A stretch of DNA of 55,093 nucleotides from an uncultured virus (IMG/VR IMGVR_UViG_3300015171_000006) (lineage: Duplodnaviria > Heunggongvirae > Uroviricota > Caudoviricetes): positions 1 through 55,093 of IMG/VR virus record IMGVR_UViG_3300015171_000006; one strand, 5' to 3'. Each line of letters starts with the position of its first letter. The stretch's first letter is position 1. This document shows, piece after piece, positions 80 through 28,255 of the stretch. Position numbers and translations under genes: made by a program. Under the pieces are notes generated by a model, which saw only the letters and a list, made by a program, of their open reading frames with translations, had not been told where the DNA came from and did not search any database.

Positions 80-93
80 GCGGAAATTCAAGC

Positions 94-2027: not shown

Positions 2028-2028
2028 A

Positions 2029-2355: not shown

Positions 2356-2364
2356 TACTTTATA

Positions 2365-3155: not shown

Positions 3156-3156
3156 A

Positions 3157-5270: not shown

Positions 5271-5479
5271 GCTGGTACTTTAATTTTATTCTTTTTATTA
5301 ATCACATTCGGTTTATTACCCTGTAAATGTCTTAAAAGAATTGCTTCAGTTTTCGCCGGGTCAGCATCAGCACTTTCAGCTACATTGCATCTTATAAGAT
5401 AGCTTCCCATACTTTCATCAAAATCAACTTCTTCTCCCGGCTTCCAGTTAATGTGTTTTTTTAAAAACCTTATCAGCAT
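5267..5479 (-). CDS. Small protein downstream of major capsid gene
   Basis: 70-aa ORF overlapping the next start; IRFLK...KPGEEV pattern typical of post-capsid small proteins. Confidence 0.7.
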   Translation of the reverse strand: MLIRFLKKHINWKPGEEVDFDESMGSYLIRCNVAESADADPAKTEAILLRHLQGNKPNVINKKNKIKVPA

Positions 5480-5495
5480 AAATATTTATTAAAAT

Positions 5496-5527
5496 AAAAC
5501 CCCTGTTATATTTCAAACAAGGGTTTT
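5496..5527 (-). terminator. Terminator-like hairpin after major capsid gene
   Basis: AAAACCCCTGTT...AACAAGGGTTTT stem with a T-rich tract on the minus strand. Confidence 0.6.
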
Positions 5528-5545
5528 ACATAAGATTAAAAAATA

Positions 5546-6997
5546 TTAGCTCAATTGTAAAACGCCCTTTACAATAGCGGCATTATTAAATATTGCCAAC
5601 GTTGCACGCTCTTCAATCCTGAACATTAATTTATTTTTCTTAGCCAAGGCGGCATCTTCAAACAATCTTAACTCAGGCTGCATCCGCTTTACAAACATGG
5701 TGGCATTTTTATCAAAGCTTAAAAAAGTATCAAACGCCATTTGAGTAGTTGGCACTACATCAAGTCCGCCAATGGTAAGCTTGCCATTTACAAAGGCAAC
5801 TGAGCCAAGCGGTAAATCATACTCACCGCTGCCCGTGGCTTTATTCAATCCAACCCTCACAGCATCTCTCGGCCTTAATACTGTAGTTGTACCCTGGTAA
5901 AATTCATTGGTAGCATCTACTATCTGGCCGTAAGCAGCATCAATTACCCTGTCAACAAGGTTACTGTAGTTTCCATTGTAGGCAGATGCCGCAGTTAACA
6001 ACCCGTCTACAGGCTGGGCAGATGATGTGCCGTTTAAAATAAATGCGTTCTCAGCAGTCTTTAAGCTGATAAGCATTTTGTTTTGAATGTAGCTATTTAA
6101 AAAAGCAATATCATCAAGCATTGCACGGTCAATTACCACAATACCGGCTATCCATTTAAAATAACCAGGCTGCGCAATTAAATTCCAATCCATTTCCGGC
6201 TTATCAGTAGTAGGGTCTTCCCACACAGCGGCTCCGCCGTCCTGGCCGTTCTCTTTTGGATAAACCAACTGAGTACCTGTTGATGTTCCGCCAGGTAAAA
6301 GATCACCAAGCCACACACGGTTATAAGGAGTGCGAATCAATGGCTGTACATCCTGGAATAACTGCCCAGCTCCCGGAAAGTTTGTGGCAATGCTCATATC
6401 ACCTACGGCCTTCACTTCACGAACACCTTCTGCGTTAAGCTCTTTTACTTCAGGCATCATGTCCATGATAAGCACCGGAGAATTTCTTTTGTAATTTTTA
6501 ATATCCTTTGCATGGCGGTCAATAGTTTCACCCAAAATTTGATTAAAGGTTTTTACTTCTGCAGCAGATGATCCGCCGCCCCTGTTTTGGCTTTTTACAG
6601 ACAGGCCTAAACGATCAACTGATTTAATAGTGATAGCAAGATCATCTTTCATTTTTACCAAATCAGCAGCAGTTACATTTTCAGGCAACCCTTTTACTTC
6701 ACCTATCTTTTTATCAATCTCGGATAGTTTTTCTTCTGTAGCGGCTTTTACTTCGGCTTTCACTTCAGTTTTTACGGCTTCTTCCAAAGCAGATTTTGTT
6801 TCATTCAAATGCTTCAAAAGGTCAGCAGATGTTTTAATTTCTACCTGGCTTTCCTTTTCTTTTTTCTCTCTTGCGGTTTTTTCTTCTGCTGTTTCACCAT
6901 CAGATTTATAAGCGGCGGTTCTTGTTGAACCATCAAGGCCAAAACGCTTGCTCGCTATTTTAGGAGCGTGGTTAAATTTTATAAATATTTTTTCCAT
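5546..6997 (-). CDS. Major capsid protein, HK97 family
   Basis: Coiled-coil N-terminal delta-like region; YPKE...A.WE...KPE, AMLDD...L.SYI, EN.FILNG, FRIEER; follows the protease. Confidence 0.93.
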   Translation of the reverse strand: MEKIFIKFNHAPKIASKRFGLDGSTRTAAYKSDGETAEEKTAREKKEKESQVEIKTSADLLKHLNETKSALEEAVKTEVKAEVKAATEEKLSEIDKKIGEVKGLPENVTAADLVKMKDDLAITIKSVDRLGLSVKSQNRGGGSSAAEVKTFNQILGETIDRHAKDIKNYKRNSPVLIMDMMPEVKELNAEGVREVKAVGDMSIATNFPGAGQLFQDVQPLIRTPYNRVWLGDLLPGGTSTGTQLVYPKENGQDGGAAVWEDPTTDKPEMDWNLIAQPGYFKWIAGIVVIDRAMLDDIAFLNSYIQNKMLISLKTAENAFILNGTSSAQPVDGLLTAASAYNGNYSNLVDRVIDAAYGQIVDATNEFYQGTTTVLRPRDAVRVGLNKATGSGEYDLPLGSVAFVNGKLTIGGLDVVPTTQMAFDTFLSFDKNATMFVKRMQPELRLFEDAALAKKNKLMFRIEERATLAIFNNAAIVKGVLQLS

Positions 6998-12972: not shown

Positions 12973-13009
12973 TCGCTAAAATAAACATTCTTCGAAACAA
13001 ACCTCAATC

Positions 13010-13117
13010 AAAAACCAGTGGCGCTGGCTTTTTTATTTTACTTTTTCAGAGGCTGTGCAGTGCCTGTTTAACATAATGGTTTCTTATAAGTGAGGCTTGA
13101 ATTTCCGCTTCGCTGTT
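13010..13117 (-). repeat. Inverted copy of the module-start element
   Basis: Reverse complement matches about 52393-52500 with few substitutions. Confidence 0.92.
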
Positions 13118-13330
13118 GGGCATTTGTGCGTCGGCTGAATTAAGTGAGGGGCGGTCCAACGTGAGGAATGGCTCGCCGTACAAATTAAACCCAAGATCAC
13201 ACAGTTTATTTAAGTGGAGGTAATACCATTTACCACTTCCATATAATTTGTACGAAAGCTCACACATTATCTTATGAAACCACCATTTTACTGGCTTTTT
13301 AAACTGCTTATTAACCTTGCTACAAGCCAT
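13046..13330 (-). CDS. Hypothetical protein; C-terminus reads through the dif-like element
   Basis: Starts just after the terL stop; the last ~24 codons are repeat sequence, so the gene is possibly truncated. Confidence 0.45.
   Translation of the reverse strand: MACSKVNKQFKKPVKWWFHKIMCELSYKLYGSGKWYYLHLNKLCDLGFNLYGEPFLTLDRPSLNSADAQMPNSEAEIQASLIRNHYVKQALHSL
13066..13094 (-). other. dif-like XerC/XerD site 4
   Basis: Minus strand CTCACTTATAA-GAAACCA-TTATGTTAAAC. Confidence 0.8.
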
Positions 13331-13345
13331 ATATATATATTGGGT

Positions 13346-14884
13346 TTAATATTCTGCATCAGCATAAACTTTTTTAGGCACCAGCGTAAATATTTCACGC
13401 ATCATAAACATATCCATTAAATCAGGACTGTCACCATTTAACTTGGTTTTCATTTCATCTTTCTTTATAACCCGCAGCTTACCGTCACTATCAGGCTTTG
13501 CCCGCTTTATGGCTTTGCGCTCATATAAAAATCGTTGCCTCACAGTCATTTTAGTATCATACATCATATTTGCCACACGCTCATTAATTTTCATTTCACC
13601 ACGGTTAACTCTGTTACCGCTCCTGTAATAACATTGAGCCTTAAGGTGCTCATAATTTTCTGGCAATAACTTTCGTGTCTTGGGATCATATTTTGGGTTA
13701 GAATAATCTGGCAAAGCCGGGCTTCCATTATTAAACTCTTTGGCGCCAACAATATACCCGTCAATAAACTGGCCCACACCATCATTATCAAAAGCAATAT
13801 TGCTGTTTTGTGTTTTATGCTTTTTTGCCATATTCTCAATGCCGGCAATCACTTCATTACCCTTGCTCTTATCCATAATCAGCATATCATCCAGTTCAAA
13901 GCCGCTCCAATGCCCAACTATAAATTTATTACTTCCTTTCATAGCAATATCAGCCGTAATATAATTGCCATCATTTTTTACATCATACTTATTTTCAAAC
14001 ATGCCTATAAATTTATAATAATCATAAATATCAATGTCAGATAATATTACCTTCCAATTTCCTTCAAATAACTGAGCCTTGGTTTCTGCATCCTGCGCCA
14101 TCAGGTTTCCCAGGTACGAAGGGTTTACTTTTAAAAGCTCTTTATTATCATAAATACTACCTGATATAAAGGTTATAGACTTTACAAATTCCCTTGCATC
14201 TATGCCAGATTTTTGTACGGCATCTTCAATTAAATACCATCCTTTTTCAATCACCTCCTCATAACTATCCCCCCAAATATAATTCTCGCCATCTACAAGC
14301 ATATATCTTATCACGCCATCCCTTTCCGGTATAGGGAAGCCGGTATCTGCATCAATCCACCAATTAATTAAATCATAAACCCAGCTTTCAGGGTCAGGGT
14401 TGCATGTTGCCCTGCAGTAAGGCCGAACGCCTGATACGGATCTGTTCCTGGTAAGCAGGTAAAAAAACATTTTTTTTGAAAAATGGGTCAGCTCATCAAA
14501 ACCTATAAATGGTATCTGAGCTCCCTGCCAGTCAAATATATTTTTCTCATACTCTAAGTGGGAAAATTTAAGCTTGCATCCCGATTTAAAATACCATTCT
14601 AAGGAGCTTTCCTTAGGAACGGCGCCAATGCCAGGGTAAATCGTCATGGAAGTATCCCACAATCCACCCTCATTTCTTATCTGTGGAGATGTACGCCTGA
14701 ATATAACACCGCCAAAAGCAGGGTTATGAACGTCACGCAGCGGATCAAGTAAAAGAGTGAATGTTTTACCTACGCCTGCAGCAGCGCCGCCAATTATTAT
14801 ATCAGCAGCATTACTAAGCGCCTTGGTTTGATAACCCGGCTGCGGCTGTATCGTTAGCGTAGGTTTCTTTATTAGCTCTGCCAT
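13346..14884 (-). CDS. terL: Terminase large subunit
   Basis: Q motif PQPGYQ, Walker A GAAAGVGKT, Walker B FIGFDE, ATCNP, nuclease ITADIA and SPDLMD. Confidence 0.95.
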   Translation of the reverse strand: MAELIKKPTLTIQPQPGYQTKALSNAADIIIGGAAAGVGKTFTLLLDPLRDVHNPAFGGVIFRRTSPQIRNEGGLWDTSMTIYPGIGAVPKESSLEWYFKSGCKLKFSHLEYEKNIFDWQGAQIPFIGFDELTHFSKKMFFYLLTRNRSVSGVRPYCRATCNPDPESWVYDLINWWIDADTGFPIPERDGVIRYMLVDGENYIWGDSYEEVIEKGWYLIEDAVQKSGIDAREFVKSITFISGSIYDNKELLKVNPSYLGNLMAQDAETKAQLFEGNWKVILSDIDIYDYYKFIGMFENKYDVKNDGNYITADIAMKGSNKFIVGHWSGFELDDMLIMDKSKGNEVIAGIENMAKKHKTQNSNIAFDNDGVGQFIDGYIVGAKEFNNGSPALPDYSNPKYDPKTRKLLPENYEHLKAQCYYRSGNRVNRGEMKINERVANMMYDTKMTVRQRFLYERKAIKRAKPDSDGKLRVIKKDEMKTKLNGDSPDLMDMFMMREIFTLVPKKVYADAEY

Positions 14885-15371
14885 TATCAGGTAACTGAAT
14901 TATTTGAACAAACCCGCCTGTTATATCAGCATTAATTTTTTGAGGAGCATAATCGCCTTCCATTTTATTAAGCTCTGCAATAGCAGATATGCGGGAAGAA
15001 TGCGTAGCCAGCTCTACAAACTTAATAGTAACAAATTTCTTTTGTACAGCGTCCCACTTCACCTCTGTGTACGGAACTTTAATTTTACCATTTATTAATT
15101 TGGTTAAATATTCCTTCCTTTCCTCTGCGCTCATTATAGCCCTTTTTCGGGCTTCTATGGCTGCCTGCTTATCAACCTCTGCAAGTTCCTTCTTTAGTGC
15201 CTCCTGCCTTATTACGTGCTGTGCATTGGCTATTTTCCAGTGCCTGTCAAATGTCCTGTCACTCATTTGCCATTTTTTGACAGTTGTTGACAAAAGTGTG
15301 CCACGCGGCTTTCCTTCCTCAATTCCTTTAATTATAAAATCAATTATTATCTGCTTATCAGCTTTTGGCAT
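14814..15371 (-). CDS. Terminase small subunit (putative)
   Basis: Immediately upstream of terL; N-terminal HTH-like region; RISAIAELNKMEGDY. Confidence 0.75.
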   Translation of the reverse strand: MPKADKQIIIDFIIKGIEEGKPRGTLLSTTVKKWQMSDRTFDRHWKIANAQHVIRQEALKKELAEVDKQAAIEARKRAIMSAEERKEYLTKLINGKIKVPYTEVKWDAVQKKFVTIKFVELATHSSRISAIAELNKMEGDYAPQKINADITGGFVQIIQLPDNGRANKETYANDTAAAGLSNQGA

Positions 15372-15425
15372 ATAGCTTTATTACATTATGCAATTTAGTC
15401 CTATCATTATTATTTGACTTAATCT

Positions 15426-15620
15426 TTATACTTGCAAGATCACCTTCCTAAGCAGCCTTCCAATAACAACAACATTTTCACCTGCAAACTTTACCAGCAT
15501 ATTGCCATTTTTACCACGGATGCATTTGCCGTTCTTACGTTTAACGGCCACACAAATTCTGCCTTTATATTCCGAAGAAGTCAGCCGGTCTCCAAGGTAT
15601 TTATATTGCTGCTCAAGCAT
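15426..15620 (-). CDS. Small hypothetical protein
   Basis: 64-aa basic ORF, co-oriented. Confidence 0.55.
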   Translation of the reverse strand: MLEQQYKYLGDRLTSSEYKGRICVAVKRKNGKCIRGKNGNMLVKFAGENVVVIGRLLRKVILQV

Positions 15621-15780
15621 TTTATGCAGTTTCTAAAAAGGCCGTGTAATGTTACATTTTTTATTGGTATTTCTACAAAAACGTAGCATAAGTGCCTGAT
15701 TATTATAGCGTAAAAAAAAGGTAGTTTTACCTGTAATCTTACAATTATCTATTAATCCATATAACCAATGAGTTTACGTT

Positions 15781-16194
15781 TTACTTTTTCCTTCCTACTA
15801 CAAATCCGTTTTTTTTCAACTCCAATAAATATTTTTTCCACGCCTTATTATTTTCTTTTCTTTTAAAGTAGTCAGGTACATTGTTGGTAAAATCTACGGC
15901 AGCACTTACGAATTTATAATGTGATAATTCTATAGAATCACCTCTTTGCATTTGCTTTAAAAGCAAGCGTATTACTTTGATAGTATCGCCTTCAATGGTA
16001 ATAGTAGAATCCGGTATTGAAATATAAATTGCGTTTCTTTTATTTAAACTATCTGCATATACTATGCTGATAAACCCCACGTGCATACTGATATACGATG
16101 CGGAATCAAACCCATATTTGTTGTGTGCTGTATCATTTTGAGAATACACAATTGTTGATATTCCCATAAGTAATATTGATAATAATTTTTTCAT
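15781..16194 (-). CDS. Secreted hypothetical protein
   Basis: Signal peptide MKKLLSILLMGISTIVYS followed by Q. Confidence 0.7.
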   Translation of the reverse strand: MKKLLSILLMGISTIVYSQNDTAHNKYGFDSASYISMHVGFISIVYADSLNKRNAIYISIPDSTITIEGDTIKVIRLLLKQMQRGDSIELSHYKFVSAAVDFTNNVPDYFKRKENNKAWKKYLLELKKNGFVVGRKK

Positions 16195-16223
16195 TTTTTA
16201 CTGATTATACGTTAATAAATTAT

Positions 16224-17924
16224 TCATCTTCCCGGAAGTTCAAGCAACTCCGGGTTAAGCCTTATACGGCCTCCTTCTCTTTTTATAAGTTCCAATGTAT
16301 TTAATGCACTTAGCGCATTATTAAAACCGCCGGAGTTAAAAGAATATTTACTTTCCGTTTTATAGGCAAGCTCTTCTTTTGAAAAATCTTTATGAGTGTT
16401 TGCCAGCAACACATCATAAATTTCTCTTTCGCACTTACTTAGCTTATTGCGATATGTTTCAATTGAATATTCCTGGGGAGTAAAATTGAACTCAGATAGG
16501 TTTCCTGATGCCTGTAATTTACCGTTCTCTCTTTTTATCAATCCTTTTGTAAAAAGTTCACTAACTGCATTATTAAATCCGCCTGAATTTGGAGAGTAAC
16601 CCGCCGCTATCCCTACCTGGGCCTTAGAAAAAAACCGATCCTGGAAAGATGCTAAAAATTGAAGTACAGCATAAGAACATTTACCTAACTGTCCACTGCT
16701 GTTATTATTTTCAATTTTATTAATATTACCAGCAAATTTTTGATTGTGATTTACAAAATTTTTAGATGGATTTTCTACAACTTTACTGGCGATATTATTT
16801 ACAACTTCTGATTTAAAGTAAGCCATGGGTTCTAAGTCAAACGCACTTCTAACTTTATTAATTTGCTTATATAATTTTTGCAAATAATCTTTTTGCTGAA
16901 TTATCAGTGTGTCCTTACTTTTTAGTTCCTGTTTCAACTTTACATTTTCATCTTTTAATCGTACGATCTCATTATCATTTGATACAGTTTGTACTGATTT
17001 TATTACGCTTTTTTCTTTTTTCTGCTCAACAGGCTTATCTAATAATTTATTTAGCTTCTCAACCCATACAGTAACATCAATTTTCTTTTTAGCAGAATCA
17101 ATAATCTCAGTTGATTTTTTGGGATCCGGATGGAATGTTTTGCGCTCCAAAACCTGAATTAGTTGCGGGTTCTCTGTTAATCCTATAGCCCAGCATTCAC
17201 CCTGTTTTAACCCCGGCAAAGACTTTATGATATCTTTTGTATTATCAACCTGCCTCAGCTCCAGCCATTGCTGAATTGATTTTAATGAATTCTTTCCTAC
17301 TTGTTTATGCAATAAGCTGAAGGCTGATATTTCCAGGATGGCTTTATTTACTTCTTCAGCCCTTTGGTTTATCAGTGTGTAACCAAGCCGGGCATTTCTT
17401 CCCATACGGGCAAGGCGCTCCAGTGAGGCATATACTTTTGAATGTTGTGGCTGCAATCTTTGCGGAATAAACTCTGCAGCTTCTTCAATAAAAATGTGCC
17501 TCATCCCATAGCTTTTATTTTCATACATAAGCAGATCTACAGTTTCCTGAACGATCCTTATCCATGAACTTTTATTGATAAGCTCAGGAGAATAAAGATC
17601 AATTACAAGGCTTACGTTTTCCTTCATAGCAGCTCTCACAATATCAACCGCATTATTTACTGTAAGCCGGATATCACTTCCCTCGCCGCCGGCAGTTACA
17701 ACAGGATAACCAATATGTTTATCAATACCGATCTTTAAATTCTTCCATACTCCCACCGGATCATATACAATTATCGGGATGTTATTATCAAGCAACTCCT
17801 CAGCTGCTTTCATTGCTGTATAAGTTTTGCCTGCATCACGTATACCGAGAATGGCATTACCCTGGCCGGCATAATCTATTGCAGGAATAGAGAAAGTGTT
17901 GCTTAATACTAATTGATTATTCAT
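16224..17924 (-). CDS. HerA/DUF87-like P-loop ATPase with coiled coil and two tandem winged-helix-like repeats
   Basis: Walker A GIRDAGKT, YDPVG, Walker B FIEEAAE, GRNARLGYTLINQR; duplicated YS.NSGGFNNA.S.L...LIKRE.G. Confidence 0.85.
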   Translation of the reverse strand: MNNQLVLSNTFSIPAIDYAGQGNAILGIRDAGKTYTAMKAAEELLDNNIPIIVYDPVGVWKNLKIGIDKHIGYPVVTAGGEGSDIRLTVNNAVDIVRAAMKENVSLVIDLYSPELINKSSWIRIVQETVDLLMYENKSYGMRHIFIEEAAEFIPQRLQPQHSKVYASLERLARMGRNARLGYTLINQRAEEVNKAILEISAFSLLHKQVGKNSLKSIQQWLELRQVDNTKDIIKSLPGLKQGECWAIGLTENPQLIQVLERKTFHPDPKKSTEIIDSAKKKIDVTVWVEKLNKLLDKPVEQKKEKSVIKSVQTVSNDNEIVRLKDENVKLKQELKSKDTLIIQQKDYLQKLYKQINKVRSAFDLEPMAYFKSEVVNNIASKVVENPSKNFVNHNQKFAGNINKIENNNSSGQLGKCSYAVLQFLASFQDRFFSKAQVGIAAGYSPNSGGFNNAVSELFTKGLIKRENGKLQASGNLSEFNFTPQEYSIETYRNKLSKCEREIYDVLLANTHKDFSKEELAYKTESKYSFNSGGFNNALSALNTLELIKREGGRIRLNPELLELPGR

Positions 17925-17932
17925 TGTAATGT

Positions 17933-18217
17933 TTATTGATAAATTAAACCCGCTGCGTCTATAAATATTTCTGGTTCTTTTTCATAATATTCATCAGGCC
18001 TGCTTTCGGCTACTAAAAATATTTGCCACCTTTTTGCCTTACTTATTTTACTGATAAAAATTCCTTTCATATACTGCACATTTTCTTCAACTACTTTTTT
18101 TCTCCATTCAGTTCTTTCTTCCTCTGTAAGCTCGTTTTCATCCAGCCGCCGGAACAGATAATCTTCTATCTGCATCTCATTGTATAACGAGCCGTTTAAG
18201 TATAGCTGGAGCTTCAT
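17933..18217 (-). CDS. Hypothetical protein
   Basis: 94 aa, start overlaps the recombinase stop. Confidence 0.65.
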   Translation of the reverse strand: MKLQLYLNGSLYNEMQIEDYLFRRLDENELTEEERTEWRKKVVEENVQYMKGIFISKISKAKRWQIFLVAESRPDEYYEKEPEIFIDAAGLIYQ

Positions 18218-19086
18218 AGTGCCGCGATTAATTTTTCAGGAATTAATACCGCTGATAAAATAACATCCGCTTGGGCTATCCGGCTGCTAAGGGTTTTCTT
18301 AGAAAGCTTTAAATAAAAATCTGCCGTGGTTTTTATTTGCTGATGGCCAAGAAAATCGCTTACATCTTTTATATCAATTCCGGCATCATGTAAATGCGTA
18401 GCCCTGCTGTGCCGAAGGCTGTGCGGCTTCACTGCACGGTTAATACCAATTCTATGTACTCCCTGCCAAAATACCTGCTGGATAGATCTTACAGAATATT
18501 GCTCATTATACTGGCCTTCAAACAACCATTTCTTCGGTTTATTTTTTTCGGCTATGTAATAGGATTTAAGAAGCTCCAGTGTGTCTGCAGGTATGGGAAC
18601 TTCACGATCTTTAAAACCTTTGGCGCCTTTTACCCTAAGCAGCCGGGTATCGCTTTTAATATGAGACAATTCAATATTTATAATCTCGCCAATGCGAAGG
18701 GCACAGGAATAAAATAATTGAATGATTGCCCGGTGTTTTAAATTTTGGTAAGAATTTACAAGCCTGCTAATCTCCTGGATGCTGAATATTTCCGGCAGGT
18801 AATTGGTAGCTCTCGGATATGGTATATCCTCAAAGTTTACAGGCTTTTTTAATACAAGTTTATAAAAGTGCCTGATAGCTGCTGTGAATTGCTTATGATA
18901 GTTTTGGTTTTTTATGGCGCCAAGAAATATTTTTATTTCCTCAAATGGCAGTGGCTTTGGCTTACCATTCATTGCATGAAGAAAAATACCCAGGCAACTT
19001 GCATAAGTCTCAATGGTGCTATCAGCATATTTTAACGCCGTTAGCTCAATTTTAAATTTCCGCATTAGCTCATCATACCGGGTCAT
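18214..19086 (-). CDS. Tyrosine recombinase, integron-integrase-like (SAM-like N-terminus, no I2 insertion)
   Basis: Y..STIETY; catalytic ALRIGE, GAKGFKDR, HSLRHS, LGH, Y; adjacent to attI/attC-like sites. Confidence 0.9.
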   Translation of the reverse strand: MTRYDELMRKFKIELTALKYADSTIETYASCLGIFLHAMNGKPKPLPFEEIKIFLGAIKNQNYHKQFTAAIRHFYKLVLKKPVNFEDIPYPRATNYLPEIFSIQEISRLVNSYQNLKHRAIIQLFYSCALRIGEIINIELSHIKSDTRLLRVKGAKGFKDREVPIPADTLELLKSYYIAEKNKPKKWLFEGQYNEQYSVRSIQQVFWQGVHRIGINRAVKPHSLRHSRATHLHDAGIDIKDVSDFLGHQQIKTTADFYLKLSKKTLSSRIAQADVILSAVLIPEKLIAAL

Positions 19087-19104
19087 AAGTAATTGATTTT
19101 TATG

Positions 19105-19137
19105 AATGTTCGTTTATAAGCTTGTTAAATGCAATGC
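19105..19137 (+). other. attI-like site
   Basis: GTTAAATGCAATGC (19124-19137) just upstream of the divergent recombinase, complementary 13/14 to cassette end 19487-19500; no hairpin upstream. Confidence 0.65.
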
Positions 19138-19144
19138 CTACCAG

Positions 19145-19453
19145 TCATTCAGTTTGGGCAATCAACGACAAGTCCTGACCATAGTATTGCATAAGGTTAC
19201 AAATTTGCGGACGGCTATCAATGTATTTCATCAATGCACAGTCTTTAGAATGAAACCAACTGACACCGTACCACGGCTGATAATGTTCCTCACAAAATTT
19301 GCAATCACATTCAACCTTTCCGATTTTATGCCGCCACTTAAAATCAAACGGAACAATTATTTTGTAACCGTTATCAATCCAATTTTTAGGTTTGCGTTTT
19401 GACAACTTATTGAAGTTGCCGCTGATGTGTATTCCGTTAAAATATCCTCCCAT
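19145..19453 (-). CDS. Cassette 1 gene: Cys/His-rich hypothetical protein
   Basis: CDCKFC...H..DC; fills the space between attI-like and attC-like sites. Confidence 0.7.
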   Translation of the reverse strand: MGGYFNGIHISGNFNKLSKRKPKNWIDNGYKIIVPFDFKWRHKIGKVECDCKFCEEHYQPWYGVSWFHSKDCALMKYIDSRPQICNLMQYYGQDLSLIAQTE

Positions 19454-19486
19454 AGTTTTAATTTTTAGTTTCTAATTAATAGCCCA

Positions 19487-19595
19487 GCACTGCATTTAAC
19501 AATGTGTTTTGCGTCAGTCGGGTAGAAGTGCAAATCCGAGCAGCGGTTTTCCAAATTCCCGCCCGAACGCAAAGCACCACCGTTATGTGTAATTG
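19487..19595 (+). other. attC-like site 1
   Basis: ...TTTAAC-N5-GTTTTGCGTCA...CGAACGCAAAGC-N6-GTTATGT; imperfect hairpin with a bulged base. Confidence 0.8.
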
Positions 19596-19670
19596 TTACC
19601 AGCATACCATTTTTCAGCAGACGGATAACTGTATTATTTTTTTTGCCCAAGCCACACATTTGTTTTCAAT

Positions 19671-20540
19671 TCAACTTTGGTAATTAATTTTATTAGCCGT
19701 TTCCAATTTCCTTAAATCATTCGTTCCGCAAAAGCCATTACATTCAATCAATGGCTTTACTTCCCTTCCCTTCATCATTGAAATATCTTTGATGTCTGGA
19801 TATTTTGGATGCGGTTTTAGAAAAACTAAGCCGCCGCCTTTGCTTTGGTCTTTCAGCATCGTTACCGGCTCTCCTTTTATATCGGTCAAATCATGCTCTA
19901 CTTTTGCCATTGCGTCAAACTTTTCAGGAAATTCCCTGCCTATCTTTTGCCAGTAACCAATACCGCCCTGAACACATCCGGTTTTCCAGCAGTTATTATT
20001 TAAGTACCCAAGTTTATAAGTAATAGGCAGTTCGATTTTTGTAAACAAATCGTTTGCCTTCTGAATTATTTTTATGCAATCTTTCTTTTTCAGCAATTCG
20101 TTTATCAAAGGGAAAATAGGCTTTGATGCAGGATGATTAAGTTTCATTGATAACGCCCTGTCAATTTCATCTATATCAAAACCGAATGCCTGATATGAAT
20201 AATTATTTTTTCTTTGCCAGCGTTCCCGTACTAATCGTTTCAGCATTTGAGAACACTTTGCCCCGGTGGAAACATTTAAAGAAACATTGTCATACCAAAC
20301 GTCTTGTATGCAGGTAAAATCTGGATTAGTTATTGTTTCAATCTCCTTACCATACCACGCCTGACAATCCTTTAAAAAACGGTAACTATCATCATCTTCA
20401 TTTTTAGTATCAATAAAAACAATTCTTGTGTTTTCTTCTCCAAACCAATCAATACATAGTTTACAAGTAACCGCACTTGTTACACCACCACTCCACCAAG
20501 CAATGACCGGAAATTCTTTATTTATTTTATCAGTCCTCAT
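19671..20540 (-). CDS. Cassette 2 gene: PP-loop (PAPS reductase/adenine nucleotide alpha-hydrolase-like) protein
   Basis: WWSGGVTSA, FIDTKNE..DSYRFL, CSQMLK, NNNC..GCV.GG.GYW, C-terminal CNGFC. Confidence 0.75.
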   Translation of the reverse strand: MRTDKINKEFPVIAWWSGGVTSAVTCKLCIDWFGEENTRIVFIDTKNEDDDSYRFLKDCQAWYGKEIETITNPDFTCIQDVWYDNVSLNVSTGAKCSQMLKRLVRERWQRKNNYSYQAFGFDIDEIDRALSMKLNHPASKPIFPLINELLKKKDCIKIIQKANDLFTKIELPITYKLGYLNNNCWKTGCVQGGIGYWQKIGREFPEKFDAMAKVEHDLTDIKGEPVTMLKDQSKGGGLVFLKPHPKYPDIKDISMMKGREVKPLIECNGFCGTNDLRKLETANKINYQS

Positions 20541-20630
20541 TTTAAAGTTTTAAATACATGCTCCGCAGCTTCAAAAAAATAATACAGCCGAACAATAGTT
20601 TTTCATAGCAGCGACATCAATTAGCACCCA

Positions 20631-20730
20631 CAACTACACATAACAAACGGTTTTGCGTCATTGCCAGGACACTGTATTATAATTTTAAGGCTCTGCGTGG
20701 GCAACGAACGCAAAGCCGCAGACGTTATTT
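20631..20730 (+). other. attC-like site 2
   Basis: CATAAC-N5-GTTTTGCGTCA...CGAACGCAAAGC-N7-GTTATTT; both arm motifs identical to site 1. Confidence 0.8.
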
Positions 20731-21285
20731 TATTACCAGTTTATCTTTGCAATTAAACCCATAAACCAGCATTGCAGCATCCCGCCCATGTTCATTCGTG
20801 CTTTCTTTCCATCCTGTTATTTTTTTAAAGAGCGCTGCATCCACTTTTGTTTTATTATTCCGTGGCGCCACCAGCTCAAATGGGATTTTATGATCACTTA
20901 AAAAATCTTCCCAAATTTTGCAGTCCCTCTTTATGCTTCCTGCACCTTGCAGCTGCTCCCTTCCTGATTCTCCAAACCAGTTTCTTTTCCGTGCATCTTC
21001 AAGCCGAACAAGTTTTATCATACCAATCCAATTGTGTACTTTATCCAATGCTTCATGTATCGTCATACTCAGCACCTGTATTAATATTTTCCCATTCCAA
21101 ATTGCAATCCCGGTGTTAACACCCGGATCAATCCCTATTACATAATCTCCCTTATGAATAATTTTTATTGATTTTTGTGAATTATTTTTTTTCTTTTTTG
21201 TGCTGATTCCATAATTAGGTTCGTCATCGCAAACAAGCCCTTTTGCAATTAATTCTTTAATATGTGATTGATCCCAACCTTTCAT
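20725..21285 (-). CDS. RuvC-like (RNase H fold) Holliday junction resolvase, putative
   Basis: VIGIDPGVNTGIA, E, NEHGRDAAML; typical position after replication genes. Confidence 0.75.
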   Translation of the reverse strand: MKGWDQSHIKELIAKGLVCDDEPNYGISTKKKKNNSQKSIKIIHKGDYVIGIDPGVNTGIAIWNGKILIQVLSMTIHEALDKVHNWIGMIKLVRLEDARKRNWFGESGREQLQGAGSIKRDCKIWEDFLSDHKIPFELVAPRNNKTKVDAALFKKITGWKESTNEHGRDAAMLVYGFNCKDKLVIK

Positions 21286-22451
21286 GTGGTGGCAAGATTT
21301 TTATTTTTTTCTTTTAAAAAATATTCCAGCACAGCCATCCGCATAAGCTGAGGTTTATCTTCCAGCACCAATTTTGTTTCGGCTCCACCCTGGTAATGTT
21401 TGTATAATTCCATATCTGAATGTTTATTGCCGCCGATCAGTTGACCCATTCGCTTTTTTATAATTTCAGGAGTAATGATCAATCCGGCCTTTTTTGATAA
21501 CTCAATAAAATGATCCGGCATAATAAGCCGGCTATCAAATCCACCCTCCATAAATCTTTCAAAGAGATAATCAAGATCAGCAACAGGCGCTGCGGTTTGT
21601 TTTTTTGAAGATTGATTTTGAATAATTTTATCAAATTGTTTCTCTAAGTTTGAAAGAAGAAAATGTTCGCTCAGCCATTTATCCGTAAAAGCATTTTCAA
21701 GAAAAAAGCGGAGCCGCCGCGGACCGGTATCCTGGTTCCATTCAATATTTTTTTCTGCAGCCCGTTTTTTTAACCGCTGAATAATCCTTTTAAAAATTTT
21801 AGGGTGCTCCCCATCAAAGCTTGGCTTTACTTTAAATTTTTCAAGCCCAAAATCAAACCATGCATTCACCAGCTCCTGCCAGTAAGGCTCAGGCGGTTCT
21901 TCAATTTTTGGTTTAATAACTTTTTTTTGGGGTGCCGGTTTATCCGGCACAACATTCTCTTTAATTTCATCTAATTTCTTTTCATTTACTTTACTTTCCT
22001 TTTGTGTACTAAATGTAGTTGGCGGAGTAGTTTCTTCTGAAGTTACCGGCGTTTCTTCTGAATTAACCAGCCAATATTCAGAAGAAACCTCAACTTTCCG
22101 CCGCAACTGCTGCATGACAAGTAACCATTGTTTTTGGATTCCATTTGAGGTTAGCACCATGTGCCCGTCAAAAAGTTTCTCATTAAATAAACCGTGTTTT
22201 AAGCATGACCGCAATATATCCATCACTAACGCACCGGTAATTCCCTTACCAACACGCTTAGCAATAGTAAATTGAGAAGTGTTTGTCCACTCCATAAAGT
22301 AACCATGCTTATAAACCATAGCCATTAATCTAATAGCTACATACCCGCCTTTGATACCACAATCCTCTTCGATCATAACTATCTTATCATCGTCAAAGAA
22401 GTCAACATCCAAAGGAAAATATTTAAGGTTATATTTATTTGGTCTTGCCAA
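21282..22451 (-). CDS. Replication initiator, DUF4373 N-terminal domain
   Basis: MARP.K..LKYFPLDVDFFDDDKI...G..G...VY..G...LTS.GIQKQW. Confidence 0.85.
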   Translation of the reverse strand: MARPNKYNLKYFPLDVDFFDDDKIVMIEEDCGIKGGYVAIRLMAMVYKHGYFMEWTNTSQFTIAKRVGKGITGALVMDILRSCLKHGLFNEKLFDGHMVLTSNGIQKQWLLVMQQLRRKVEVSSEYWLVNSEETPVTSEETTPPTTFSTQKESKVNEKKLDEIKENVVPDKPAPQKKVIKPKIEEPPEPYWQELVNAWFDFGLEKFKVKPSFDGEHPKIFKRIIQRLKKRAAEKNIEWNQDTGPRRLRFFLENAFTDKWLSEHFLLSNLEKQFDKIIQNQSSKKQTAAPVADLDYLFERFMEGGFDSRLIMPDHFIELSKKAGLIITPEIIKKRMGQLIGGNKHSDMELYKHYQGGAETKLVLEDKPQLMRMAVLEYFLKEKNKNLATT

Positions 22452-22454
22452 TTA

Positions 22455-23303
22455 TTAAAATTTTGGAAACTCTCTAATTTGTAAATGTTTTGGAAACTCA
22501 TTAATATCCCCGCCATGCCTGTCACTCATTTTTAACTGCCTTGAAAGATGGGTGCCCATTTGTTTCACGAATACAGGTACACCTTCTTTTTTGCATTGTT
22601 CAATAATACTTTCAATCCATTCTAACTTACATTCCCTGTAACCATATTTTACAGATGGATCGTTTGGTATTTTACCGTGGCCGCTTTCTCCCCCAACAAT
22701 TACCCAACCTATACCGTGATTTAAAATTCCCCATGTGGCTGAGTTAAAGCCAAATATTTTAAGTTCGCCCCAAAGAGGCTCAGCGGATATAAATTTTATT
22801 CCTGAAAATTCACTTTTACATAACTCATGTATCCTGCGTTGTCCGTATTGTGTGCCTACTGAGGTTCCTAACCAAATTGACTTTGTGTATTCACCATGTA
22901 AAAAATCTTCTGGCGTTTGTTTATCAATTCTTTCAGGACGTTTTGTAAGAATTTGCTTTATAATACCAGGCGTTTTTCTTGCTATATTCCAATATTCATT
23001 TCTAAAAGGATCAATCGCTTGATGGTAAACATCAGTAAGAGAAGAAGTGAACATTAAAGGATTGCTACCCTCCCTTACATGCGATTCTTTTTCTTTATAT
23101 TTTAATGGGAGATCAAATACAGTTTTTGTTTTAACTACTGTTTTAGGATCGTACCGTGTTCCATCCATTGAATCCCGATACATATAACAATATTTACAAT
23201 CAGAAACTTTTTTACCGTCCGGCTTTTCATCTACAACTTTGGTACAACCTCTTGCGATATTATGTGTCGCATCCGTCCATTGTATGTTTGTTTTTTCTGA
23301 CAT
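22455..23303 (-). CDS. DUF5131 (Gp37/Gp68) family protein
   Basis: T.IQWTDATHN...GCTKV...CKYCY, LTKRPER, FISAEPL, WVIVGGESG, PVFVKQMG. Confidence 0.9.
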   Translation of the reverse strand: MSEKTNIQWTDATHNIARGCTKVVDEKPDGKKVSDCKYCYMYRDSMDGTRYDPKTVVKTKTVFDLPLKYKEKESHVREGSNPLMFTSSLTDVYHQAIDPFRNEYWNIARKTPGIIKQILTKRPERIDKQTPEDFLHGEYTKSIWLGTSVGTQYGQRRIHELCKSEFSGIKFISAEPLWGELKIFGFNSATWGILNHGIGWVIVGGESGHGKIPNDPSVKYGYRECKLEWIESIIEQCKKEGVPVFVKQMGTHLSRQLKMSDRHGGDINEFPKHLQIREFPKF

Positions 23304-23319
23304 GGTTATACTGCGGTTT

Positions 23320-24486
23320 TTATAAAAACATTCCTAATTCTTTTTTTAATCTCTTCTCGGCCATCTTTATATAGGCCGGGTTTAATTCTATACCAATAAA
23401 ATTTCTGTTTAGTTTTCTCGCTACAAGTGCAGTAGTTCCTGCGCCCATAAATGGATCAAGTACAATCCCATTTTCAGCGCATCCGGCTTTAATACAATCA
23501 ACAATTAAATCCTGCGGAAAGGTTGCAAAGTGTGCATTAAAGTAAGGTTTGGTAGTTACTGTCCACACACTTTTTTTATTTGCCATTCCTGATCCAATCA
23601 AATTATCATACGCATCAAAATTGCCTGAATGACCAGTTAATTTTTTATCACCTGCGCCGCGGTGAGCATAGGCTTTAATACCACTTTCAGAACCCTGGTT
23701 TCCGCCCTTTATATCAATTCCATTTCGTGACATTCGCCCTGGTCCAACGGCTTTCATTGCACCATTAGTTTTGCCAGGTACTATATCACTTCCTTTTTGA
23801 TCCTCTATTTGCTGCATCATTCTCTTAACGGTACTATCTTTTACAGGCGTTCTTATAGCATCAATATCGTAGTAATACCTAGGAGACTTGCTTAATAGAA
23901 AAATATATTCATGAGATTTTGTACAGCGGTCTGTAACGCTCTCTGGCATTGGATTGGGCTTGTTCCAAATAATATCCTGCCGCAAGTACCAGCCATCTTT
24001 ACGGAGGGCAAGTGCCAGAGTCCATGGAATGCCAATTAAATCTTTCGCTTTGATATCACCTGATGCCGGTATGTTACCACCTCCCCATCTGCTAACGCCG
24101 TTTACATTTCTTCCACGTTTACTTTTTTGCTGTTTACTAAATTCATAATTTCCTATGCCCTCAATTGAAGATGCAGACATTGATTTATGCACCCAGTTAG
24201 TATTAGAGCCTTTTTGCTGCCCGTTCATTCTTCCTGCATAAGAATCTCCCATATTCAACCACAGTGTGCCATCATTTCTAAGCACTCTTTTAGCCTCTCT
24301 GAATATTAATACCATTTTTCTGACATATGCTTGCGGTAATGCCTCCAGACCCAATTGTCCGCTAACTCCATAATTTCTTAACCCATAGTATGGCGGAGAG
24401 GTAACAATGCAATGAATACTTTTATCAGCAAAAGTTTTTAAAACTTTTAGTGCATCACCAGGATATATTTTATTCACAGCCATCAT
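23320..24486 (-). CDS. DNA amino-methyltransferase (N4-C/N6-A, beta class)
   Basis: VTSPPY, IIWNKPNPMPES, HFATFP, VLDPFMGAGTT, IGIELN. Confidence 0.93.
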   Translation of the reverse strand: MMAVNKIYPGDALKVLKTFADKSIHCIVTSPPYYGLRNYGVSGQLGLEALPQAYVRKMVLIFREAKRVLRNDGTLWLNMGDSYAGRMNGQQKGSNTNWVHKSMSASSIEGIGNYEFSKQQKSKRGRNVNGVSRWGGGNIPASGDIKAKDLIGIPWTLALALRKDGWYLRQDIIWNKPNPMPESVTDRCTKSHEYIFLLSKSPRYYYDIDAIRTPVKDSTVKRMMQQIEDQKGSDIVPGKTNGAMKAVGPGRMSRNGIDIKGGNQGSESGIKAYAHRGAGDKKLTGHSGNFDAYDNLIGSGMANKKSVWTVTTKPYFNAHFATFPQDLIVDCIKAGCAENGIVLDPFMGAGTTALVARKLNRNFIGIELNPAYIKMAEKRLKKELGMFL

Positions 24487-24688
24487 TTATAATAATTTTA
24501 AATACGGATTCTCTTACTTCATGAGAATAGTGATAAGTCCATAAATCAATAAGTCTCATCCTTCCATAGGAAGGAATAAAATGCCTTTATGGCAATTCTC
24601 TCCTCGAGAGAAAGTGTTTTATAATATGTAATAAAACTTCGCTTCTGCGGCTTAGAATTAATAAATTTTTTCTTTCTGCTTCCCATAA

Positions 24689-25429
24689 TCAAAATGCTGT
24701 TTTATTAAACAATAATTCCATTCCTGCAGAAGCAATGTGCACCGGCTTTCCGGTCTGCTCTTCTACTTCACGCTTAAATCTTTTTTCGTCACTGTTGCCA
24801 TCGCTAAGATGAATGAGCACAATGTTATTTACCTTGCTCAAATCATTGGCGCCAAGCATTTGTTTGCACGTTGCAAGGCTCATGTGAGAGGTGATCACAC
24901 GGTCTCTTAAAAATTTTGGGTTCATACCATCAGCCACTCTTTTATCCAGTATGGTTTGGCAATAGTTGGCTTCAATTATTATATTGTTTAGCCCGCTAAA
25001 GGTGTACTCGCAGTAATAGCTGTCGGTAACAAACAGCACCTTGCCACATTCATCATGGTATATTAAAAAGCCAACCGGCTCAGCCACATCATGCTTTACA
25101 TCAAAAGGCTTTATCCTGAAATTGCCGATCCTGAATTCATCCCCGGAAGAAGTAATAACAGCCCTGTGATGATTTACTAATCCTAATGCCTTAAAAGTTC
25201 CTTCTGTTGCATATACATTTATGCCGGCAGCAATTACCTGGGCAATGCTTTTGGAGTGATCTCCATGCTCATGCGTAACCAGGCAGCCGGCAATTTTTTT
25301 AATATCAAAATTCACTGCCTGCTTAATTTTATCAAAGTGAACCCCGCACTCTATCAGCAATGCTTCCTTGTCATTTTCCAGCAGGTATGCATTGCCGGCC
25401 GAGTTGCTATTGATTACTTTTAATTTCAT
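24689..25429 (-). other. MBL-fold metallohydrolase/nuclease
   Basis: SNSAGNAY, THEHGDH, HD, TD, EANY, SHMS, LIHLS. Confidence 0.9.
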
Positions 25430-26239
25430 TTAAAAGCCCATTTTTTCTTGATTGTTAACAAAGTCCATTGTTTGGCCGCCGGTTGTGTCAGTCATAACCG
25501 CCTCCTGAAAATCCATAGGTCTTGAGTTGCCATTTGCTTTTATTTCATCCTGCACCTGATCTGCAGCATCATCGTTTTCAATTGCGTTGATCATTTCCAC
25601 AGAAAGGATTCCCCAATGAGTTAGCATGTTTTTAAGCACAGTCTTTTTTGCCATTGCTGAAAACTCTTTTTGCCATGGGCCATAAGGCTGGCTATAAGAA
25701 GGGCTGTACTTACTTGCATGAGCCATAACTTTTTCTTTGGTCATGTAAAGTGTTTTTGAAAAACCGTTGTGCAATTCCATGTAAGCAAAATATCCTATCA
25801 CCTTATCACTTGTAGCCTGTCCGTTTACATCAAACTCACCGGTAAGTTTATTACGTGTGCGATATTCACCTTCATATACTTCATCGCAGTTAAGCGTTTT
25901 ATAATTACCTGTGCGCAAAGCCAATTGCACATACCCTTTATATCCAATCTGGAACTCTGGTTTTTGTTTGTATGCAATTACATAAGCAAAGCCAAGGTTC
26001 TTGTTAATTGGAAGCTTTAGCAGGGCTCCTTTAAGAGCTTCTTTTATTATTGACCCCGGGTTACATTGCTGCAGGTTGGTATCGCTTGTAAATAAATCAA
26101 TCAGCGAGGCAATGAATGATCCTGTATTCTCACCAAGGGCATTTTTAAACTGCGCCTGCACACTATCAGAATACATCATATTTTTTAGTGTGTCTACTTT
26201 TGATACGGCCACTTGCTGGCCGTTGTTATTTTGTTCCAT
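25430..26239 (-). CDS. recT: RecT-family single-strand annealing protein
   Basis: LGFAYVIAY, FQIGYKGYVQLALRTG, AMAKKTVLK. Confidence 0.9.
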   Translation of the reverse strand: MEQNNNGQQVAVSKVDTLKNMMYSDSVQAQFKNALGENTGSFIASLIDLFTSDTNLQQCNPGSIIKEALKGALLKLPINKNLGFAYVIAYKQKPEFQIGYKGYVQLALRTGNYKTLNCDEVYEGEYRTRNKLTGEFDVNGQATSDKVIGYFAYMELHNGFSKTLYMTKEKVMAHASKYSPSYSQPYGPWQKEFSAMAKKTVLKNMLTHWGILSVEMINAIENDDAADQVQDEIKANGNSRPMDFQEAVMTDTTGGQTMDFVNNQEKMGF

Positions 26240-26269
26240 ATTTAAAAATTTGTTTAGTTTAAAAAATAA

Positions 26270-28255
26270 TTATGCTGCCTGCTCTATCCTTAATTGCTTA
26301 TCAGGCTTGGAAGCAATAAGGCTTATCAGCTGGCTTTCACTTTCCGGGATGATAAATACACTCTCCCTGTTATCAATAAAAATGGGTGCTGAAATATTAT
26401 GGTGCCTGCACAGGGTATTTATGATGTCAACGCCGGCCTGTATCTTGCTTGCAGTGTTGGCATCAGCATAAGGAACGCCGTTTATCAATGTTTCGCAACA
26501 CGGCTCCTGGCCACCATTTATTTTATCGCGGAACATTTTAAACTTTACAATGGTAAACATGCTGTTAACCCTGCTTTCCAGCATATCCATCTTGGCCTTT
26601 TCAAATTGCATGATAGAAAATTCAATTCCTTCCAGCCGGGCCAGCTCCTGCGCCATGCTGCTTTCCTGGGTATGTAATTCTGCAATGCGAGCTTCTATTT
26701 TTTCACGCTGTCCTTTTGATGATAGTTGTTGTTTTAAATCATCTATCCCATTTTGAATAGTTGATTTTTTAGCAAGCAAATCAGCATTATCATCTGCATT
26801 TATTGGAGCCTTAATTTCATCATTCAATGAAGCTATTTGCGCTTTAAGATTTTTAAGATTTTCATTAGCAGCAATGGCATTTTGAAAAGCCAGATCATCA
26901 TTTGCAGAAAGGTTTAAATTTTCTTCCTCAACAAAAGAAATTTTAAGTTTTGTTTCATTGATAGCGATCTGCAATGCTTCATCTTCGGCTTTTAATTTTT
27001 CAATAGATTGATCAATATAGGCAATGCTCTCATTTACTTTTTTACCCTCTGCAGTAACCGATGCAAGCCTGGTAGATTTGTCCTGATTAAAGTTGCTTTG
27101 CATCTGTGCTTTCTTTGCTTCCACATCAGTTGCTTCATACGGCCTTTTACATGCCGGGCACATAAATTCATTTTCTTTAAATTCAAGCTTTTCAGAATCA
27201 ATGGCTGTCCATTTGGTTCTCAACTCCTGCTGCTGGGTAAGCAATGATTTTTTGCGTGACTGATCATTTGAAACGGCAATGGCATTGCGTGAAGCTTCAT
27301 CCAGCTTATCTTTTAAAGTGCGCTTTAAGTTTAAAATTTTTTGCTCCCTTTCACGCTTATTATCCTGCACTTTATTGCGTTCTGCAAACTCAATATTATT
27401 AACCTCTGATGTAAGTGAATGCACCTGCCTTACCTTATCATTTACTGCCTGCTGCTTTTGCTGCAGGGCGAGTGTTTTATCATTAATAAGCGCTTCCACC
27501 TGCTGCAATCCTGCTTTTTCTGTTTCAAGCTGTGCTTCAATAGCAGCGTAGTTTACAAAATCAGGCAGGCTTCTTTTTGCTTCATCAATGCGGGAAGGGA
27601 GAAGATCCTTTTCATCACGAATCAGTTTCTTTTTAGCGGCAATCTCATTGCGGTATTCATACAAAGTTTTCTTTGCATTTAATGCAGTTATAAGGCTGGT
27701 AAAGTCTATACCGGTGATGGCATCAAATACCATTTTGTTGGTAATTTCACCGGCAAGCTTTTCCAGTACCGATCTTCTGTCCTGCCAGGCAAGGGTTGCA
27801 AAATAGCTTGTATTGGTAATAAGCTTAAATAGCCCTTCATCCAGTATGCTGGCTATTTTCTTTTTAAATTCAGTTTCATTAAGAGGTACATCATTCCAAA
27901 AGAAATCCTGCTTATGGCCGCTAAAGGTTTCTGTGGCCGTGCCTTTTTTAGTAGGCCAGTTTTCTTTGTAAGATCTTCTTATAGTTACTTCATCACCATT
28001 CACTTCAATTACAGCAGAAACCTCATGGCTCATTTTATGGAACGCCTGGTTATTGCTGTCCAGCGTTTTGATATTAAAATCGGTTCTGTCCGCAGAATTT
28101 TTACCAAACATCAGCCATAAAAAGGCATCCATAATGGTAGTTTTTCCGGTGCCGTTATCACCAAAAATATTAGTGATATTGCTGAAGATAATTGTGCTCT
28201 CTCTTGCTCCTTTGAAATTCAGGAGCTTCATCTGTTTTAAAATTATTTTATCCAT
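26270..28255 (-). CDS. SbcC/Rad50-like coiled-coil ATPase
   Basis: L.NFKG, Walker A GDNGTGKTT, CPAC zinc hook, PIFIDNRES. Confidence 0.9.
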   Translation of the reverse strand: MDKIILKQMKLLNFKGARESTIIFSNITNIFGDNGTGKTTIMDAFLWLMFGKNSADRTDFNIKTLDSNNQAFHKMSHEVSAVIEVNGDEVTIRRSYKENWPTKKGTATETFSGHKQDFFWNDVPLNETEFKKKIASILDEGLFKLITNTSYFATLAWQDRRSVLEKLAGEITNKMVFDAITGIDFTSLITALNAKKTLYEYRNEIAAKKKLIRDEKDLLPSRIDEAKRSLPDFVNYAAIEAQLETEKAGLQQVEALINDKTLALQQKQQAVNDKVRQVHSLTSEVNNIEFAERNKVQDNKREREQKILNLKRTLKDKLDEASRNAIAVSNDQSRKKSLLTQQQELRTKWTAIDSEKLEFKENEFMCPACKRPYEATDVEAKKAQMQSNFNQDKSTRLASVTAEGKKVNESIAYIDQSIEKLKAEDEALQIAINETKLKISFVEEENLNLSANDDLAFQNAIAANENLKNLKAQIASLNDEIKAPINADDNADLLAKKSTIQNGIDDLKQQLSSKGQREKIEARIAELHTQESSMAQELARLEGIEFSIMQFEKAKMDMLESRVNSMFTIVKFKMFRDKINGGQEPCCETLINGVPYADANTASKIQAGVDIINTLCRHHNISAPIFIDNRESVFIIPESESQLISLIASKPDKQLRIEQAA

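Follow-up and report, generated by a model that had tools for sequence, protein, structure and literature searches.

A gene-cassette locus was analysed in the virus record IMGVR_UViG_3300015171_000006 (Caudoviricetes, 55,093 nt); the window in what follows is this whole 55-kb record. The locus is likely a site-specific gene-cassette platform that works like an integron and employs a Xer-type tyrosine recombinase. A preliminary description of the window had read the same region as integron attI/attC geometry. Related loci supported this reading through their geometry, compensatory changes in the hairpins, pairing of cognate cassette ends, divergence of phages at a GTT, recurrence of the first cassette elsewhere and junctions in metagenome contigs, all of which are comparisons of sequence. 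L-numbers are labels of comparison loci, and c followed by a number gives the cassette number within an array.

The recombinase gene (290 aa, 18214-19086, minus strand) encodes the candidate cassette integrase, as judged from Pfam, NCBIfam and alignments with solved structures. Along the plus strand it is followed by 38 nt reaching from its start codon to the first G/TT (the slash marks the junction) at G 19124; comparison with relatives points to this segment (19087-19124, no strand) as an attI-like insertion site. Then come a 102-aa gene, an 87-nt hairpin, a 289-aa gene, an 85-nt hairpin and the stop codon of a Holliday-junction resolvase homologue. By the G/TT rule, cassette 1 occupies 19125-19582 (+) and holds a start arm, the 102-aa gene at 19145-19453 (-), an AAC-ending arm at 19487-19500 and a hairpin core at 19501-19581. 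Cassette 2 occupies 19583-20724 (+) and holds a PAPS-reductase-family gene at 19671-20540 (-, 289 aa), an AAC-ending arm at 20631-20644 and a hairpin core at 20645-20723. The G/TT junctions named in the preliminary description were present at 19124/19125, 19582/19583 and 20724/20725, and its AAC-ending arms were located at the two positions given above. The resolvase homologue (20725-21285, minus strand; phrog_1770 at 1.2e-26) is a backbone gene at the far end of the array, and its stop codon is the TTA immediately following the last G of the array. All listed genes from 14814 to 24486 lie on the minus strand, and the PHROG matches of the neighbours place the array within the replication and recombination gene block of the phage.

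The structure of the sites was analysed across related loci. Recombinase searches yielded 13 viral loci and two genome contigs with recombinase identity of 50-70%; the two contigs belong to a Sediminibacterium and a Ferruginibacter assembly, both Chitinophagaceae. A metagenome scan added eight loci, mostly short, among which L033 alone was informative. With a simple hairpin scan, like geometry was seen upstream of the recombinase gene and in every case on the antisense strand. From a seed alignment of 22 hairpin sites a covariance model was built. The alignment showed a 17-pair stem with compensatory changes in 15 of the 17 pairs. Its stem cells were paired in 91.1% of cases against 60.8% for shuffled sequences and 37-44% with slid partners, and the covariation score was reached by none of 500 shuffles. 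A T.G wobble was kept in 16 of the 22 sites. By this comparison the sites are imperfect hairpins with AAC and GTT boxes, kept in structure rather than in sequence, as in integrons. The covariance model detected 40 sites (E<=0.001) in the window and 11 related loci; 18 of these sites were absent from the seed alignment. All 40 were on the strand antisense to the recombinase gene, and all but one were upstream of it. The exception is a lone site (L012:8557-8692, minus strand, 57.6 bits), which lies about 5 kb beyond the recombinase gene as seen from the array. Folding energy was biased to the gene-sense strand in phage arrays (31 of 38, p=1.7e-4). Chance as the origin of the pattern was ruled out by the shuffles, the pairing of non-cognate ends described below and the covariation score. 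Homogenisation of cores within an array was also rejected, the likeness within arrays being 65.3% and that between arrays 64.7% (p=0.22).

In the window, the model was run with filters off over 13000-28000 and returned only the two known sites, at 19492-19590 (62.7 bits) and 20636-20732 (60.4 bits), both matched over the full model length. The hairpin lengths claimed earlier from AAC to GTT were recovered as 87 and 85 nt. The arm pattern said to be common to both occurred twice in the window and in none of 100 shuffles. The extra (bulged) A was found on the GTT-proximal arm of both hairpins; this placement, noted as atypical in the preliminary description, is real and holds across the phage-type family. 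Hairpin 1 alone folded better than its shuffles (z -4.4 on the plus strand and -4.0 on the minus strand). No Rfam family matched at gathering scores in the whole window and nothing relevant at E<=1 in 19050-20800. The tRNA search called no tRNA or transfer-messenger RNA (tmRNA) in the window or in L003-L005.

The ends of the cassettes were compared next to their hairpins. Each cassette start had been described as complementary to its own end and not to that of its neighbour, and both parts of this statement held. Positions 19122-19137 are complementary to 19487-19502 (16 nt, 94%) and 19582-19596 to 20630-20644 (15 nt, 93%), with 13 of 14 nt in both cassettes, while the start of cassette 1 and the end of cassette 2 agree in 8 of 14. 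For the family, the 16 nt from GTT were paired with the 16 nt ending in the next AAC for 27 cassettes bounded by two sites. The cognate pairs (n=27) gave a mean of 12.8/16 and 19 of them reached at least 13. The mean for non-cognate pairs (n=1342) was 8.2/16 and 12 reached at least 13; these 12 had closely similar end sequences when read by eye. Position 11 is nearly always A in the start sequence and C in the end sequence, so that one strand has a fixed mismatch there and the other a wobble. Cassettes starting with GTA end in TAC rather than AAC, so that the change is carried at both of their own ends; this match indicates that the two bases after the G travel with the cassette.

The position of the hairpin core relative to its cassette was also revealed by the comparison. 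In the chromosomal array L056, four copies of a 279-bp cassette are 92-100% alike; the cores that follow them are 99-100% alike while those preceding are 51-64% alike. Among phage arrays, the highest likeness in 703 pairs of cores (80%, the median being 56%) was that between L007c1 and L014c2, two homologous methyltransferase cassettes. The first cassette of L004 and the fifth of L008 have the start of the following core in common. These likenesses fit a core that follows its cassette on the distal side and is carried with it, in accordance with the boundaries drawn in the preliminary description.

A different kind of likeness was seen in cassette 2. An L011 cassette has ends about 92% identical to those of cassette 2 (19582-19667 and 20552-20644, about 88 and 93 nt) around a different interior of 2.1 kb, whose genes include a methyltransferase. 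In metagenome run X3, a contig of 1345 nt had only 19582-19678 in common with the window. The ends of cassette 2 contain a second complementary block, 19629-19643 with 20573-20587 (15 nt, 100%). On this comparison the pattern of cassette 2 is one of a conserved frame with swapped cargo.

The point of insertion and the exchange of cassettes were then compared. In all 15 loci whose recombinase shares at least 50% identity, an array, where present, begins 38-41 nt from the recombinase start codon. A block of motifs at the insertion site is common to the window, L003, L006 and L024. In other clades, phages agree throughout the site as far as GTT and differ in the sequence beyond it; the insertion-site sequence co-varies with the recombinase clade. 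The preliminary description had proposed comparing related phages for variable cassettes, and near-identical phages were found to diverge exactly at the recombinase-adjacent GTT. Over 6.9 kb including the recombinase gene, L008 matches L009 and L010 at 99.8-99.96% identity, and it parts from them after ...GATGTT, at the GTT 38 nt beyond the recombinase start codon. L011, L012 and L014 have backbones 89-93% identical and the same insertion site with three different first cassettes. The first cassette of L008 is the fourth of L012 (174/174 nt from GTT).

Cassette 1 of the window recurs as the second cassette of L033, beside a recombinase 59% identical. The DNA likeness (310/370, 84%) lies within 19124-19500 and is bounded exactly by GTT...AAC, starting at GTTAAATGCAGTG and stopping at CATTGCATTTAAC. 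The homologue of its 102-aa gene is located at L033:1655-1960 with 91% protein identity. In contigs of the metagenomes of three other studies the likeness to the window stops at 19124, 19584/19585, 19497 and 20640; window parts that were uncovered in runs X2-X4 are uninformative. A 425-nt X3 contig from another study matches 19124-19486 with 5 differences in 363 nt (98.6%) and carries 62 unlike letters before 19124. By these comparisons, array content changes at the recombinase-adjacent insertion site, in the relatives and, for the window, only through the X3 contig whose likeness ends at 19124, and cassettes are exchanged between arrays.

The window recombinase was compared with known families. 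Pfam assigned Phage_integrase (PF00589, 2.3e-32) plus Phage_int_SAM_4. The catalytic residues R131, K156, H222, R225, H248 and Y258 form an intact set and are invariant in a three-sequence alignment. The best NCBIfam match was XerA_Arch (181.7 bits, cut-off 220), with XerC at 138.6 bits (cut-off 335), XerD at 131.2 bits (cut-off 330) and IntI (TIGR02249) at 116.7 bits in two pieces (cut-off 265); the protein is below the curated cut-offs of all four models. The best solved relatives are XerA 4a8e and 5hxy, and the XerA alignment is colinear. In the alignment with IntI4 (2a3v), a stretch of 61 chain residues (186-246) faces 20 residues of the query (182-201), so that about 41 residues are missing. 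The lack of the IntI-specific insertion, as claimed in the preliminary description, is borne out by this alignment and by the split TIGR02249 match. The additional domain near patch III that is specific to IntI is likewise lacking in the enzymes of L003, L016 and the chromosomal loci L056 and L057. From these alignments, the recombinase is Xer-like. A subgroup of "integron-like" recombinases with an incompletely conserved insertion is described in the available part of PMC8138268.

The orientation of the cassette genes separates two architectures. The genes of the window point to the recombinase gene, as had been described, and this holds across the phage-type family. Among the phage-type cassettes with an open reading frame of at least 40 aa, 35 of 36 contain one compact gene on the recombinase strand, antisense to the site. 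The integron layout, with genes that face away from the insertion site and are expressed from a platform promoter, is not that of the phage arrays. In chromosomal arrays, the gene precedes its own site and is co-oriented with it (22/22 in L056 and 5/5 in L057), and the phage arrays are the mirror image of these in the orientation of gene against site. In both architectures the site is oriented by the side on which the recombinase lies, and in the phage type only is this orientation opposed to transcription. Site polarity is thus tied to the recombinase side and not to transcription, which argues against an RNA-level role of the hairpins.

The cargo of phage-type cassettes consists mainly of DNA-modification genes, 12 of 35 proteins being DNA methyltransferases (7 N6_N4, 3 C-5, 1 N6_Mtase and 1 D12). 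This content suggests a changeable kit against host restriction. The cassette 2 protein of the window belongs to the PAPS-reductase family (phrog_424 at 4e-45, Pfam PAPS_reduct 4.3e-06), and the 102-aa protein of cassette 1 had no match in Pfam, NCBIfam, PHROG or Atlas. The window also encodes a 388-aa N6_N4 DNA methyltransferase (23320-24486, minus strand), which is part of the phage backbone, outside the array and free of flanking sites. The first cassette of L003 (L003:4826-5159), beside the insertion site, is without a protein gene and contains a permuted tmRNA match at 4863-5090 (+). This match (RF04321) is full length at 67.6 bits with a gathering score of 47, and was not called by ARAGORN. 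Judged from this match, an RNA gene can serve as cassette cargo. The -7 promoter motif of Bacteroidota is TAnnTTTG. No such motif was present on the gene-sense strand of 18900-21500, so a cassette-borne promoter is not supported.

The distribution of the hairpin family was surveyed in genomes, with 22 candidates scored per genome. The covariance-model scan of Bacteroidota, which the preliminary description had proposed, gave matches in 109 of the 151 Chitinophagaceae genomes sampled (E<=0.001) and, for the phylum as a whole, in 57 of 151 sampled (E<=1e-6). The phrase "integron analogue carried by a phage" is upheld by the comparison in its first part; the system is not a phage speciality, being widespread in Chitinophagaceae chromosomes. 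In L056 (G103:C1:275000-294900), 23 sites within 17 kb come immediately after a recombinase gene of 385 aa, the product of which scored 218.7 bits with XerA_Arch and 189.1 bits in two pieces with IntI. L057 has six sites after a 404-aa recombinase gene.

The cultured Polaribacter phages Freya_10 and Leef_1 were also searched. The simple hairpin finder gave spurious hits only, and the covariance model reached a best E of 0.13 on L060 and L061; membership of Freya_10 and Leef_1 in the hairpin family is not claimed. The Freya integrase gene is distant, with 27% identity to the window recombinase. L060 (Freya_10, 1-6500) and L061/L062 (Freya_1) are 99.8% identical from 67 nt upstream of this gene. 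Upstream of an AAC the two phages are unlike, and ten small genes are located there in Freya_10. Among the ten Freya records, lengths vary by up to 4.9 kb.

A mechanism can be proposed from these comparisons. Each cassette on the plus strand consists of a TT-arm, the gene, an arm ending in AAC, the hairpin core and a G. The neighbouring Xer-type enzyme, as the presumed catalyst, would recognise the hairpin by shape and not by sequence, and strand exchange would take place at or beside G/TT, on the distal side of the hairpin. Cassettes would leave as circles with their two arms paired and enter at the recombinase-adjacent site. Analogy with integrons, and with Xer recombination on folded phage DNA, makes single-stranded DNA the probable substrate. 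The cassette genes are probably read through from upstream phage promoters. A wider view is rather plausible, in which a second integron lineage exists without IntI. A plain Xer-type recombinase would capture and shuffle cassettes at shape-defined hairpin sites in Bacteroidota chromosomes, and phages would carry a mirror-image version as an exchangeable kit (methyltransferases, other DNA-modification genes and even tmRNA) against host defences.

Several observations weigh against the platform. The IntI insertion, which the window recombinase lacks, is essential for integron function according to the available part of PMC8138268. The cores of window cassette 1 and its L033 homologue are unrelated (42/81), and one X3 metagenome contig matches 19497-19585 only, with unlike sequence on both sides. 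These swapped cores indicate that the core is not always carried with the cassette and that a single crossover point is insufficient; on comparison of these junctions, exchange at the AAC side seems also to occur. Hairpin 2 alone folded no better than its shuffles (z -0.8 and -1.0), 39 and 32 of 200 shuffles being at least as good, so its support comes from covariation across relatives and not from folding energy. The strand bias of folding energy was not significant in chromosomal arrays (18/33). The metagenome comparison used contigs and reports presence and junctions rather than activity; excision, circle and integration were not observed. Three of the five fetched chromosomal hairpin clusters had no recombinase gene nearby. 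No near-identical relative of the window phage was found, the closest loci having recombinases 57-72% identical, and variation at the window site is therefore inferred from the family. A DNA search of a phage collection gave likeness to methyltransferase genes only and no relative of the locus.

The platform could also be real in evolution and a fossil in the window phage, its two cassettes being fixed and immobile. Such a state would agree with the small number of cassettes, with the failure to find a close relative carrying another array and with the thermodynamic weakness of hairpin 2. It is nevertheless unlikely, since the recombinase gene is intact and retains every catalytic residue, the model matches both sites over its full length at 60-63 bits and cassette 1 occurs 98.6% identical beside unlike sequence in the contig of another study. 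Present-day activity of the platform in the window phage is an inferred part of the reading.

The sites could also be genuine and the neighbouring Xer-type gene not their catalyst. The array would then be a passive cluster served by a host recombinase, and the phage gene would act in dimer resolution or in another role. The abundance of the hairpin family in host-family chromosomes (109/151) and the three recombinase-free clusters are in line with this, and integrase-less attC clusters are known in phages, one of them in a Polaribacter phage with two methyltransferase genes, as far as the available part of PMC9892861 describes. The constant distance of 38-41 nt in all 15 loci with divergence exactly there, the co-variation of the insertion-site sequence with the recombinase clade and the two chromosomal arrays that likewise begin beside a related, longer recombinase make this explanation quite improbable. 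The Xer-type gene beside the array is retained as the candidate cassette integrase.

Shuffling by homologous recombination has been proposed for the promoter stem-loop cassettes of T4-type phages. A similar origin here, with the hairpins as RNA-level or transcription elements (terminators, processing or stabilising stem-loops), would suit intergenic elements of conserved structure whose cores recur with different neighbours, but is highly improbable because the sites are oriented by the recombinase side (against transcription in phage arrays and with it in chromosomal ones), junctions occur at the hairpin-less site beside the recombinase gene, the cassette-specific pairing arms including GTA...TAC are unexpected from homologous exchange between hairpins and no Rfam family matched.

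The window contains a second tyrosine recombinase outside the array. This arm-type integrase (32608-33678, plus strand; Pfam Arm-DNA-bind_5, Phage_int_SAM_5 and Phage_integrase) adjoins a GH19 lysozyme-like gene and, judged from its domains and setting, probably serves lysogeny. Its presence leaves the Xer-type enzyme free for another task, and the phage looks temperate independently of that enzyme. The ends of the record repeat internal sequence at 94-95% identity, 1-130 with 52323-52452 and 54918-55093 with 52080-52255, the internal copies lying about 2.8 kb inside the right end. The record may wrap around a genome that is circular or terminally redundant, or the repeats may stem from a tandem duplication that has since diverged.

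Integrons are defined and sought by the IntI-specific domain. A working platform without it, if confirmed, would mean that the domain is unnecessary for the capture of cassettes at hairpin sites. Surveys keyed to the domain may overlook a system that gave matches in 109/151 sampled Chitinophagaceae and 57/151 sampled phylum genomes. IntegronFinder 2.0 reported one complete integron only in Bacteroidetes, according to the available part of PMC9024848. A search of the literature in full text, supplementary tables aside, brought up no account of a cassette platform of the Xer type in Chitinophagaceae or their phages. If true, the platform would offer a natural test case for the origin of integron integrases from Xer enzymes, and phages would have a new way of altering their protection against restriction, through a store of methyltransferase cassettes driven by a recombinase.

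Among known systems, the integrase-less attC clusters (CALINs) of phages are similar in host and cargo. The available part of PMC9892861 describes such a cluster in the Polaribacter phage P12002L, found by standard tools, with two methyltransferase genes; one of these attC-like sites recombined with attI1 under IntI1 in the assay of that paper. Canonical integron parts are also reported there for phages, and the attC-like sites are regarded as fragments of integrons. The present arrays share attC-like sites in a Bacteroidota phage flanking DNA methyltransferase genes. They differ in the dedicated Xer-type gene and insertion site at the array end, no recombinase being linked to the cluster in that part of the source; the two were compared by description only.

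The array resembles integrons, especially sedentary chromosomal ones and those with an integrase gene co-oriented with the cassettes, in that a tyrosine recombinase gene beside the insertion site is followed by one-gene cassettes. Each cassette ends in an imperfect AAC...GTT hairpin conserved in shape, its first bases pair with its own end box and new content appears at the recombinase-proximal site. The differences from integrons lie in the recombinase, which is without the IntI-specific domain and below the IntI model cut-off, in the pairing arms of 14-16 nt compared to the canonical 7 nt, in the extra bases on the GTT-proximal arm, in the genes of phage arrays, which run antisense to the site and towards the recombinase gene, and in the core that is sometimes swapped on both sides. 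CTX-type elements exploit host XerC/XerD on folded single-stranded phage DNA and integrate at the host dif site. They similarly involve a Xer-family enzyme without the IntI domain and a folded hairpin substrate with an unpaired central part, but there the whole phage integrates through host enzymes, and cassettes, arrays and an element-encoded recombinase are lacking. The pdif modules of Acinetobacter plasmids are genes between inverted recombinase sites moved by Xer-type enzymes, and the present cassettes share this arrangement and enzyme type. The sites of pdif modules are short, duplex, dif-like and mutually similar, whereas the cassettes of the window and its relatives carry cassette-specific arms and long structured cores.

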